Under the pieces are notes generated by a model that saw nothing but the letters and a program-made list of their open reading frames with translations, ran no database searches and was not told the origin of the DNA. Shown here piece by piece: positions 42,056 to 45,004 of a DNA stretch of 64,000 nt (positions are counted from its first letter, which is position 1; each line of letters begins with the position of its first letter). A program made the position numbers and the translations under genes. Origin of the DNA: an uncultured Actinomycetes bacterium (GTDB lineage Bacteria > Actinomycetota > Thermoleophilia > Gaiellales > Gaiellaceae); contig CAWDLU010000002.1 of NCBI GenBank assembly GCA_963803325.1, positions 154,982 to 218,981 on the forward strand, given 5' to 3'.

Positions 42056-45004
42056 CTACTCCGCGGCGAGGCGCTCGCGCGCGAGCGCGCGCAGCGGGCC
42101 GATCGGCACGCAGAGGTCGCAGGCCCAGAGCCGTGCCGTTCCGTCGTCTCCGACAGTGAGGACGAGCTTGCCGTCGGGGCTGAAGACCGCGCTTTCGACC
42201 GGGCGGCGGTGACCTCTGAGGGTGTCGACTCGGTGGCCGCTGGCGGTGTCCCAGAGCCGCGCCGTCCCGTCGTCGCCGGCGGTGAGGACGAGCTTGCCGT
42301 CGGGGCTGAAGACGGCGCCGTAGACGGGGCCGCTGTGGCCGCTGAGCGTGCGGACGGGATCGCCGCCGGCCGTCTTCCAGAGCCGGGCGGTCCCGTCGTC
42401 GCCGGCGGTGAGGACGAGCTTGCCGTCGGGGCTGAAGACGGCGCCGTAGACGGGGCCGCTGTGGCCGCTGAGCGTGTGGACAGGGTTGCCGGTGGCGGTA
42501 ATCCAGAGCCGCGCGGTCCCGTTGGACCCGTCGCTGCCGGCAGTGAGGACGAGCTTGCCGTCGGGGCTGAAGACGGCGCTCGTGACGGGACCCTTGTGGG
42601 TGAAGGTGTGGTCGGGGGCGATGGGGTGGCCGGGGCTGCCGCCGGCGGTTCTCCAGAGCCGTGCCGTCCCGTCATCGCTGGCGATGAGGACGAGCATGCC
42701 GTCGGCACTGAAAAGCGCACTGGAGACGGTGCCGTCGTAGCCCTTCAGGATGGGTCCCGGGAGGCCGTCGGCAGTGTCCCACAGCTGCGCCTTTCGACCG
42801 ACGGTGAGGACGAGCTTGCCGTCGGGGCTGAAGACGGCTGTGGAGGCGGTCCCGCCGTGGCCGAGAGTGTGGACGGGGTCGTCGCTTGCAGCGTCCCAGA
42901 GCCGCGCGGTCCCGTCGTCGCCGGCGGCGAGGACGAGCGTGCCGTCGCGGCTGAAAACGGCACTGGTGACGGCGACGCGCTGGCCGATGAGGGTGTGGCC
43001 CGCTTCGCCGCCGGGCGTCTTCCAGAGACGCGCCTTCCGACCGGCGGTGAGGACGAGCGTACCGTCGGGGCTGAAGACGGCGCTGTGGACGGGGTCCTTG
43101 GAGCCGCCGAGGATGATCGGGCGGTCGCCGCCGACGTCCCAGAGCCGCGCAGTCGTGTCGTCGCCGGCGGTGAGGACGAGCTTGCCGTCGGGGCTGAAGA
43201 CGGCGCTGTGGATCGGGTCCTTGTCTGCGCTGAGCGTGTCGATGGGGTCGCCGGTGGCCGTATCCCAGAGCCTCGCCGCCCCGTCGGCGCCGGCGGTGAG
43301 GACGTGCGCGCCGTCCGGGCTGAAGACGGCGCCGGCCACGAGCTTGCCGTGGTGACCGTTGAGAGTGTGGACGAGGTGGCCGCTCGCGGTCCTCCAGAGT
43401 CGCGCAGTTCCGTCGTCGCCGGCGGTGAGGACGAGCTTGCCCCGGGGGCTGAAGACGGCGCTGGAGACGCGGCCGCGGTGGCCGTGGAGGGTGCGGATGG
43501 GCTCGCCGCTGGCCGTCTGCCAGAGCTGCGCCGTTCCGTCGTCGTCGGCGGTGAGGACGAGCGTGCCGTCGGGACTGAGGACCGCGCTGTGAACCGGGCC
43601 GTGGTGGCCGCTGAGGGTGTGGACGAGGCGGCCGGTCGCAGTCCTCCAGAGCCGCGCCGTCCCGTCGGTGCCTGCGGTCAGGACGAGCTTGCCGTCGCGG
43701 CTGAAGACGGCGCTGGAGACAAGGCCGTGGTGGCCCTTGAGGGTGTGGACGAGGTGGCCGCTCGCAGTCGTCCAGAGCCTCGCGGTTCCGCCGGCGCCTG
43801 CGGTGAGGACGAGCTTGCCGTCGCGGCTGAAGACGGCGCTGGAGACAAGGCCGTGGTGGCCGCTGAGGGTGTGGACGAGGTGGCCACCGGCGGTCTTCCA
43901 GAGCCTCGCCGTTCCGTCGGCGCCGGCGGTGAGGACGAGCTTGCCCCGGGGGCTGAAGACGGCGGTGGAGACGGGCTTGCCATGGTGGCCCTTGAGGATG
44001 GGGCCGGGCTCACCGCCGACCGTGTCCCAGAGCCGTGCGGTCCCGTCCTCGCCCGCGGTGAGGACGAGCTTGCCGTCGGGGCTGAAGACTGCGCTCGAGA
44101 CGGCAAGCCTGTTACCCCGGAGCGTCCTGCGGAGCAGGTCCGCGGCGAGCGCCACCCGCAGCGCGCCTTCCGCCTCGCGTGTCGGCGACGTCTCCGCCGC
44201 TCTCCCTGCCAGTGCGAGCGCCGCCGAAGGATCCGCGTCGACAGCTGCAACCGACTGCCCCGCCAGTGCCCGCGACTCTCCGATGAGAGCCTGGTCGCGG
44301 GCCCGCACTGTAAGCACGGCGAGGGTCGCTGCACCGATCGCCAGTGCTGCGAGCAGCGCCCCGGCTGACCAGGCGAGGCGCAAAATGCGCCTGTGCTGGG
44401 TGATGTCCTCGCCGAGCAGCGTGTCCTTGTCGCGGCCGTGGATCGGCGCAGCGATGTCGGCGATCGCGTTGCGGAAGTCGGGCTGGCGGAGCGACACGTC
44501 CGATTCGGCGCGCGCGAAGCGGAGGTCGATCCAGAAGGGCTCGGAGGCGAACGCGTGCTCGAGCGCGCGTGGCAGCGCGGTCGTCCGCTGCCAGTCGAGA
44601 TCGCCGGTGTGTTCGTCCCAGGCGATCTCACCGTCGGTCAGCGCGATCAGAAAGGTGTCGATCGACTTGTGCTCGCGCCAGTAGCCGATCTCCTTGCCGA
44701 CCCACTCCGACTCGGCCGCGTCCGGTGAAGCCAGCAGGACGAAGAACCGCGACCCGGCCAGCGCGCGTTCGATCCCCGACCAGAGCGCAGGCGTCGCCGA
44801 CAGGCTCGTCTGGTCGCGGAATACGCGCAGCGCGTTCAGCCGGTACCACGGCTTCGCAAATCGGCGTAGCCCGCGCTGAAGCGACGGCGCGAGCCTTCCG
44901 TCGGCCGCGTGGCTGTAGGAGATGAACGCGTCGTACCCGGCCGCACCGTCCGGCGAGCGTGCCCGCCGCCGGCGGAGCGAGTACCTACGGGCCGGGCGGC
45001 TCAT
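42056..45004 (-). CDS. TIR - hydrophobic helix - WD40 repeat protein (982 aa) with highly homogenised blades
   Basis: '[15 protein letters not shown]...[11 protein letters not shown]' (TIR). Helix '[24 protein letters not shown]'. About 16 blades of consensus '[42 protein letters not shown]', several identical at the DNA level. C-terminal '[18 protein letters not shown]'. Confidence 0.85.
   Translation of the reverse strand: [982 protein letters not shown]

Follow-up and report, generated by a model that had tools for sequence, protein, structure and literature searches.

Internally repetitive β-propellers, in which one protein carries tandem blades of closely similar sequence, have already been documented both in bacteria (PMC5587647, PMC9218822) and in fungi (PMC4986451), and several yardsticks exist for describing them. 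Hu et al. (2017) distinguish 'highly repetitive' bacterial WD40 proteins, with identities of at least 0.7, from 'moderately repetitive' ones at 0.4–0.7 (PMC5587647). Pereira and Lupas (2022) set the cut-off for highly repetitive β-propellers at a median blade identity above 60% (PMC9218822), and the criterion applied to the repeats of fungal NLR proteins is more than 85% identity over at least 100 amino acids (PMC4986451). In the fungal case, where repeats share about 85% or more of their amino acids, repeat-number polymorphism and positive selection have been demonstrated (PMC4986451, PMC12222747). Here we analyse a gene of this kind at positions 42056–45004 of a 64,000-nucleotide stretch (hereafter the window) of contig CAWDLU010000002.1, assembly GCA_963803325.1, from an uncultured Actinomycetes bacterium. 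The gene encodes a protein with an N-terminal TIR domain, a hydrophobic helix and 16 WD40 blades. A preliminary description, made from the sequence alone, had presented its blades as 126-bp units homogenised at the DNA level and had proposed, by comparison with NLR-like and STAND proteins, that the protein is a rapidly evolving recognition module. As we show below, the blades are indeed related at the DNA level; their homogenisation is partial and only moderate, and the gene is best filed as an intermediate example of the known internally repetitive bacterial WD40 propellers.

Results

The blades share codons as well as residues

The gene is a single intact reading frame on the minus strand that translates into 982 amino acids, according to both the open reading frame (ORF) listing and the translation. 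The GC content of its third codon positions (GC3) is 0.90 in the coding frame, and the DNA of the window as a whole is high-GC (about 70%) with the codon pattern of an actinobacterium. Blade parsing resolves 16 contiguous blades (B1–B16; Table 1). In good agreement with this, Tandem Repeats Finder (TRF) returns for the gene a single array at 42124–44095 with a period of 126, 15.6 copies, 71% matches and 6% indels. The exact recurrence of 87 nt at an offset of 126 nt, which the preliminary description had reported, was reproduced at the coordinates that it gave and constitutes the maximal exact run. The further near-identical units that it had placed at about 43680–43870 correspond to a second exact pair, of 56 nt and again at an offset of 126, and the verbatim duplication of blades at the protein level is likewise real, with one 33-residue string occurring twice, in blades 14 and 15. 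In total, the array holds 27 pairs of exact repeats of at least 30 nt, and the offset of every one of them is a multiple of 3.

Since a genome with GC3 near 90% reuses the same codons, similarity between blades at the nucleotide level has to be measured against codon bias. We therefore compared blades that carry the same residue at a given position and asked how often they also carry the same codon. Within the gene this fraction is 0.745 (about 3000 residue pairs), against an expected 0.464. The corresponding values are 0.50 within the WD40 gene at 37163–40087 and 0.53 within the WD40 gene at 48267–52400 (expected about 0.48 for each), and 0.50 and 0.58 when the studied gene is compared with these two (expected about 0.47); both control genes share the FSPDG...TAG.DGTAR.W motifs with it. 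Homologous genes from other actinobacterial metagenome-assembled genomes have a codon-sharing excess similar to that of the studied gene, at 0.69–0.79. Given the same amino acids and the codon usage of the window, the probability that 29 codons are identical by codon bias alone is about 3e-10. The blades thus share their codon choices by descent or exchange and not through bias, which bears out the claim of similarity at the DNA level.

Codon sharing is unevenly distributed along the unit: the start has 0.74, a 42-nt core that encodes strands a and b has the highest value, 0.84, and the last third, several of whose columns match the random expectation, has 0.62. No such homogeneous core is present in the paralogs of the window. 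Overall, the excess amounts to about half of the possible maximum, and synonymous divergence has reached about half of the ceiling that codon bias imposes; the bulk of the array is therefore not very young.

Homogenisation of the array is partial

Mean identity between blades is 75% at the nucleotide level and 0.64 at the amino acid level (median 0.62, range 0.46–0.88). The closest pairs are B3/B4 (91% of nucleotides) and B14/B15 (90%), while B2, B3, B4 and B6 form a group of similar blades with 83–91% nucleotide identity; B1, B8–B13 and B16 are diverged, with deletions in B9 and B11 and insertions in B12 and B13. The mean proportion of synonymous differences (pS) among blades is 0.31, and the synonymous divergence (dS) has a median of 0.39 and a minimum of 0.13.

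Measured by the rule of Hu et al., which calls for at least 6 of 8 contiguous repeats with all pairwise identities at 0.7 or above, the best value is 0.62 (blades 2–7); this places the array among the moderately repetitive propellers and outside the highly repetitive class, although its dS values agree with the low synonymous divergence that the same authors describe. By the measure of Pereira and Lupas the array lies just above the cut-off, and by the fungal one it lies below, with a best ungapped self-match over 100 amino acids of 82%. The blades of about twenty among the 120 best database homologues are more uniform (up to 0.80). The description of the units as homogenised therefore holds in so far as they are related at the DNA level, whereas the degree of homogenisation, at 75% of nucleotides and 64% of amino acids, stays below both 0.7 and 85%. 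The blades of the other WD40 proteins of the window had been called more diverged, and they are: mean blade identity is 0.37 in the protein encoded at 37163–40087 and 0.49 in that encoded at 48267–52400.

One exchange tract is statistically secure

The blades are mosaics. Over the first two thirds of the unit, B14 and B15 do not differ at all (100% identity); in the last third, B14 is closest to B5 and B15 to B2/B10. Similarly, the nearest relative of B9 is B8 in the first part of the blade and B11 in the final part, and B9 shares with B11 a two-codon deletion. A Sawyer-type permutation test on the blades of the array identified a run of 61 concordant polymorphic sites between B14 and B15 (global p ≤ 0.0005), and no blade pair other than B14/B15 was globally significant. 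B14/B15 is thus the secure recent exchange tract in this array, and the only one.

On a longer time scale, blades are more similar within the protein (0.64) than to the blades of any other protein (at most 0.55). Among 20 homologues that also have 16 blades, identity along the diagonal, i.e. between blades of the same rank, equals identity off the diagonal, so that there is no positional orthology. Such a history would fit either repeated independent amplification, which is how Pereira and Lupas read it, or homogenisation.

Searches for close relatives found no genome with proteins at least 90% identical in the collections searched. Of 13 window proteins looked up in a collection of 15 billion sequences, eight were present. 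All of these lie on one contig of 348,566 bp, and none shares its 90% cluster with another sequence, so that no close relative of the source organism is represented in that collection. The collection lacks the protein as translated from the ATG at 45004, perhaps because another start was called, and exact look-ups of this protein and its neighbour retrieved no contig that encodes them. A genome scan with the N-terminal 300 amino acids gave best identities of 51–60%, the best genome match being Nonomuraea rhodomycinica at 51%; in protein searches, the best full-length match reached 50% and the best N-terminal matches 73–76%, on fragments or a frameshifted gene. The nearest N-terminal relative (74%, positions 5757–8737 of a metagenome contig) is broken: the frame that encodes its TIR domain and helix stops at 6677, and WD40 blades of another type (GTVLLWD / LASAG) continue in two other frames. 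Pereira and Lupas describe disrupted repetitive propellers, of which this gene is an example.

Variable positions lie on the surface, partly on the top face

Variability was scored by position in the 42-residue unit, with strand limits taken from an AlphaFold2 model (see below). Positions 2, 5, 7, 9, 25, 33, 36, 38 and 41 have high entropy, in agreement with the two clusters of differences noted earlier, one around GHxGxV and one after LW. In the WD40 fold, the top face accommodates position 2 (the end of strand d), positions 5 and 7 (the d–a loop), position 9 (the second residue of strand a) and position 25 (the residue preceding the Asp of the b–c turn). Position 33 (the last residue of strand c) and positions 36 and 38 (the c–d loop) belong to the bottom face, and position 41, in strand d, to the outer rim. 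None of the hypervariable positions is buried. The expectation that variability would cluster on the top surface is consequently borne out for the GHxGxV cluster, which coincides with hotspots; the cluster after LW maps to the bottom face or rim. Of the hotspot positions, 5, 7, 9 and 25 are hypervariable here. The variability of 14 independent homologues with more repetitive arrays is restricted to positions 6, 7, 9, 25 and 27, the classic top-face hotspots, and in these homologues the residues after LW, which make up the end of strand c, the c–d loop and strand d, are not hypervariable. In the studied protein, variability after LW looks like ordinary drift at unconstrained surface sites.

The preliminary description had further invoked diversifying selection at ligand-contact positions. 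In hotspot columns, defined on other proteins, the ratio of nonsynonymous to synonymous divergence (dN/dS) is 1.66, compared with 0.58 in the remaining columns. The diverged control paralogs give 1.5–1.8 at the hotspots, since codon bias caps pS near 0.54, and Fisher tests on individual young blade pairs were not significant. A pooled hotspot dN/dS above 1 was for this reason rejected as evidence of selection: the control paralogs have the same value. Diversifying selection at the hotspots is possible, and these ratios do not demonstrate it.

A TIR head and a conserved hydrophobic helix precede two predicted propellers

Profile searches with the 982-residue protein yielded 452 bits for Pfam WD40 in 14 stretches, 33.7 bits for TIR_2 (cut-off 28) and 23.3 bits for ThsB_TIR. 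The AlphaFold2 model, for which an alignment of 40 homologues served as input, contains a TIR-like α/β domain, helices, 64 β-strands and a terminal helix (968–980); the helices ahead of the blades span residues 193–254, which hold the hydrophobic segment, 259–272 and 276–288. With units of about 40 residues and four-stranded blades, the array has the features of a WD40 β-propeller. The top Foldseek match in the PDB is 2YMU, deposited as 'a highly repetitive propeller structure', and 5MZH (ODA16) is matched over 334 columns with a template modelling score of 0.78 and a root-mean-square deviation of 1.1 Å. Because there are 16 blades and ODA16 is eight-bladed, the modelled array most likely forms two eight-bladed propellers.

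Pfam detects no NTPase family in residues 1–300, and ahead of the blades the model comprises only the TIR fold and helices. In the absence of an NTPase domain, profiles and model alike indicate that this is not a STAND/NLR protein, unlike those with which it had been compared. In the TIR domain, W101, E105 and W109 are invariant in 40 aligned homologues. E105 lies within S-x-W-V-x-x-E, and from the SxWCxxEL motif we take it to be the catalytic Glu of TIR NADases. With a fold that scores above the profile threshold and a conserved predicted catalytic Glu, the domain has both hallmarks of a candidate TIR-domain NADase. PADLOC returned only weak TIR and ThsB matches for the protein (E of 6e-4 and above). 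A Thoeris system, which would pair ThsB with ThsA, was considered and rejected: the ThsB matches are weak and no neighbour matches a ThsA model.

Of 112 homologues with the N-terminal module, 103 have an equivalent of the hydrophobic helix, about 73 residues ahead of the first blade. In these homologues, the flanks carry a net charge of +3.1 upstream and +1.0 downstream, and the N-terminal flank is rich in Lys and Arg; by the positive-inside rule, the TIR domain would therefore be cytoplasmic and the propellers would lie outside. In each of the four effector-plus-propeller proteins of the window, a single hydrophobic helix separates the head, which is TIR or TIR plus nSTAND1, from the propeller; the other three helices are located at residues 183–201 of 37163–40087 (minus strand), 365–383 of 32881–36357 (plus strand) and 597–615 of 48267–52400 (plus strand). 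This arrangement points to a possible extracytoplasmic location of the WD40 sensors, including those of the version with a STAND NTPase. As for the C-terminal tail, its consensus C..C.....L...A..R..R.LT..E is conserved across the family, and a disulfide there would fit an extracytoplasmic location. Literature searches found no described TIR / membrane helix / WD40 receptor.

The gene lies in an island of conflict-type genes

The gene lies in a cluster rich in conflict-type genes, with a dense island at 32881–52400 that holds four TIR-containing propeller proteins, one of them with an nSTAND1 NTPase as well (Table 1). Between the N-terminal module of the studied protein and those of the window's other TIR-propeller genes there is only a distant relationship. 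When the patatin, TPR-S, PD40 and nSTAND1 neighbours were searched by tblastn against 30 homologous loci, no matches were obtained. A conserved operon or fixed multi-gene system is thus not supported, no neighbour recurring in the 30 loci, and we therefore treat the gene as a stand-alone member of the island.

Table 1. Features of the studied gene and its neighbours (positions in the window; aa, residues of the 982-residue protein)
Feature	Coordinates	Strand	Evidence or remark
TIR / membrane helix / 16×WD40 protein gene	42056..45004	-	ORF translation, GC3, AlphaFold2 mean pLDDT (predicted local distance difference test) 89.6
TIR domain, Pfam TIR_2, aa 27–119, Glu105 in SxWVxxE	44648..44926	-	profile scores, homologue alignment
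Hydrophobic helix, ~aa 207–232, putative membrane anchor, Arg-rich N-terminal flank	44309..44386	-	hydropathy scan, AlphaFold2
Helical linker from membrane helix to blade 1, aa 233–294	44123..44308	-	AlphaFold2 helices, conserved family consensus motif
16 WD40 blades, aa 295–970, unit ~126 bp	42095..44122	-	TRF, blade parsing, Pfam, AlphaFold2, Foldseek
Blades B1–B8, inferred first propeller	roughly 43112–44122	-	
Blades B9–B16, inferred second propeller	roughly 42095–43111	-	
87-nt exact repeat, blade 15 copy	42264..42350	-	partner 42390..42476
87-nt exact repeat, blade 14 copy	42390..42476	-	partner 42264..42350
56-nt exact repeat, blade 4 copy	43680..43735	-	partner 43806–43861; B3/B4 91% nucleotide identity
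56-nt exact repeat, blade 3 copy	43806..43861	-	partner 43680–43735
C-terminal tail past last blade, CxxC motif and terminal helix	42059..42124	-	translation, family consensus, AlphaFold2 helix 968–980
TPR-S protein, weak TIR-like N-terminus	46138–48264	-	
Patatin-like phospholipase	long ORF 45017–47008	-	matches CBASS phospholipase effector models (2e-42)
Secreted PD40 (TolB-like) propeller protein	40206–41948	-	signal-peptide-like start
TIR-WD40 protein	37163–40087	-	
TIR-nSTAND1-WD40 protein	48267–52400	+	
TIR-propeller protein	32881–36357	+	

Several observations concern the neighbours themselves. About 870 nt at the end of the TPR-S gene are also covered, in another frame, by the long patatin ORF, whose stop lies 12 nt ahead of the ATG of the studied gene. 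Since the patatin domain begins only at codon 307, the true start is probably near 46100–46140, with translational coupling to the TPR-S gene. The N- and C-terminal regions of the TPR-S protein (about 200 residues each) have no Pfam match even at E = 1. The C-terminal part (GGARGADLLFAE...) presumably resembles the SLOG/LOG-type nucleotide-sensor fold, for which a lenient Pfam search found nothing; near patatin and TIR genes, this unconfirmed resemblance would suggest a Thoeris-like arrangement of signal and effector. The TIR match of the 974-residue ORF at 37163–40087 begins at residue 3 with profile position 19 of 122, and the minus-strand frame is open to 40243 (37163–40243); translation therefore probably begins upstream of 40087, in which case the gene would overlap the end of the PD40 gene. 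Inside the PD40 gene, TRF reports a weaker tandem repeat at 40396–40739 (period 132, 2.6 copies, 72% matches). Directly past the stop codon of the studied gene, at 42016–42039, there is a perfect 9-bp hairpin (CCGAACCGG ... CCGGTTCGG) without a T-run, whose folding energy is not significant (z = -1.75). A promoter and terminator scan of 41.9–48.4 kb found none.

Discussion

We favour, with a probability of roughly 0.7, an explanation that covers the origin of the array, the exchange between its blades, their variability and the function of the protein as a TIR-linked sensor. It starts from what is directly visible, namely the repeats, their relatedness at the DNA level, the mosaic blades and the domain architecture, and extends conditionally to a recombination mechanism, ligand binding and TIR activation. 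A 126-bp blade unit would have been amplified within the gene to form the array, which later partly differentiated. A few short-tract exchanges or partial re-duplications would have followed, most clearly between B14 and B15, with B3/B4 and the B2/B6 group as probable later exchanges. The strand a/b core, near-identical in most blades, accounts for the many in-frame exact repeats of at least 30 nt, which could in turn act as substrates for more recombination. Residues that vary between blades occupy loops and exposed strand positions, including the canonical top-face ligand-contact hotspots. The propellers may bind a ligand, the clustering driven by that ligand would switch on the N-terminal TIR domain, and the TIR domain, with its catalytic Glu kept, would degrade or convert NAD+ in a conflict or defence response.

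Several points weigh against this explanation. Selection for C-ending codons, and not recombination, could be part of the reason why the core is homogeneous in its codons; the paralogs of the window, without such a homogeneous core, speak against that. The permutation test ignores the clustering of constrained sites, which makes its pairwise p-values too generous, and since each blade pair offers about 33 synonymous sites, sampling noise could account for most of the spread in pS, so later exchange outside B14/B15 is suggested at most. The lack of conservation of the neighbourhood in the 30 homologous loci means that genomic context lends the proposed function little support, and the ligand-binding and TIR activity steps are predictions from sequence.

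Among the alternatives, the one that survives best is the full model of the preliminary description, in which concerted evolution is ongoing, all units being homogenised by frequent gene conversion and unequal crossing-over, and positive diversifying selection acts at ligand-contact positions, the two together continually creating new specificities, as in the fungal HET-E/NWD proteins. It can draw on codon sharing above expectation, the mosaic blades, the significant B14/B15 tract, the many in-frame exact repeats and the variable top-face hotspots of the studied protein and its homologues, as well as on the dN/dS of 1.66 at hotspots chosen a priori (jackknife range 1.5–1.8); the closest N-terminal relative, a frameshifted array with another blade type, also fits fast turnover. 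We nevertheless consider this model unlikely, given that identity averages only 75% of nucleotides and 64% of amino acids, that B8–B13 and B16 are diverged and carry indels, and that the array lies below the 0.7 and 85% thresholds. In addition, the bottom face or rim holds half of the hypervariable positions, the ratio of 1.66 is not diagnostic when control paralogs also exceed 1, and the window proteins that are present in the sequence collection are all singletons at 90% identity.

Far less probable, to the point of being hard to credit, is the proposal that no DNA-level process was involved and that strong protein conservation together with codon bias (GC3 about 90%) made the blades alike. 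A GC3 of 0.90, a family consensus near the blade consensus of the studied protein and conserved-core codons that all end in C are what one would expect under it; the codon test argues strongly against it, as the same-codon fraction is 0.745 where about 0.46 is expected, as the WD40 paralogs of the window, with the same motifs, reach only 0.50–0.53 internally and 0.50–0.58 against the studied gene, and as an identity of 29 codons would arise with a probability of about 3e-10. That the near-identical units are an assembly artefact (repeat collapse or chimeric joining) is just as improbable: nothing positive speaks for it beyond the lack of a close relative against which to check the source genome, while ordinary reads can place units that differ by 9–38% and whose longest exact repeat is 87 nt, the frame is intact across all 16 blades, 16 is the commonest blade count among homologues and the AlphaFold2 model folds with high confidence.

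Under the favoured explanation, the repeat phenomenon itself adds little, since propellers of this kind with variable hotspots have been catalogued in thousands of bacterial proteins. The value of this gene is that of a worked intermediate stage, in which an older amplification has partly decayed, the core has stayed homogeneous and one or two exchange tracts are fresh. The conserved membrane helix is the more interesting feature and the one most worth following up. It points to a large uncharacterised family in which a membrane helix stands between a domain for death or signalling and a WD40 sensor of 14–16 blades. We put forward, tentatively and against somewhat unfavourable odds, that the helix is a true membrane span and that the TIR-, nSTAND1-, kinase- and caspase-headed members of this subfamily are surface receptors with a Toll-like layout, whose binding face is diversified by blade recombination. 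If this is true, pattern recognition would take place at the cell surface and not inside the cell, and proteins with an extracytoplasmic sensor would become candidates for immune or kin-recognition receptors at the surface of filamentous actinobacteria.

The closest described systems are the highly and moderately repetitive WD40 proteins of Hu et al. (PMC5587647) and WRAP of Nostoc, Npun_R6612 (2YMU; PMC9218822). The studied protein shares with them WD40 units of 42 residues, high internal identity, low synonymous divergence and variable hotspot residues, as well as 14–16 blades arranged as two propellers, an actinobacterial host and TIR or other conflict-type domains. It differs in that its array is at the low end of the range (median amino acid identity 0.62; 0.62 by the rule of Hu et al.) and only locally young, whereas the blades of WRAP are near-identical, and in that WRAP is fused to a STAND ATPase, while here a TIR domain and a membrane helix precede the blades and an NTPase is absent. 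The fungal NACHT-WD40 proteins HET-E, HET-D and NWD (PMC4986451, PMC12222747) similarly combine tandem 42-residue units, similarity at the DNA level, mosaic relations between repeats and variable top-face residues with a proposed recognition role tied to a cell-death effector. The studied array, at 64% amino acid identity, is less uniform than theirs, its protein has no NACHT domain and its host is a bacterium.

In overall layout, the protein resembles two groups of receptors. Actinobacterial receptor Ser/Thr kinases of the PkwA and PknD type possess a membrane helix and a C-terminal β-propeller or PASTA sensor. Receptor kinases of that layout in actinobacteria are mentioned in PMC7159879. What the studied protein has in common with them is the sequence of a cytoplasmic signalling domain, a single membrane helix and a C-terminal repeat or propeller sensor, as predicted here; it differs in that the output domain is a TIR and not a kinase, and the location of the WD40 sensor in the studied family is a prediction. 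Animal Toll-like receptors are alike in architecture only, in that a sensor made of repeats is joined through one membrane helix to a TIR domain in the cytoplasm. Their domains follow one another in the opposite order, the TIR domain of the studied protein being N-terminal; its sensor is built of WD40 blades and not of leucine-rich repeats, and its bacterial TIR domain probably acts as an enzyme that consumes NAD and not as a scaffold.

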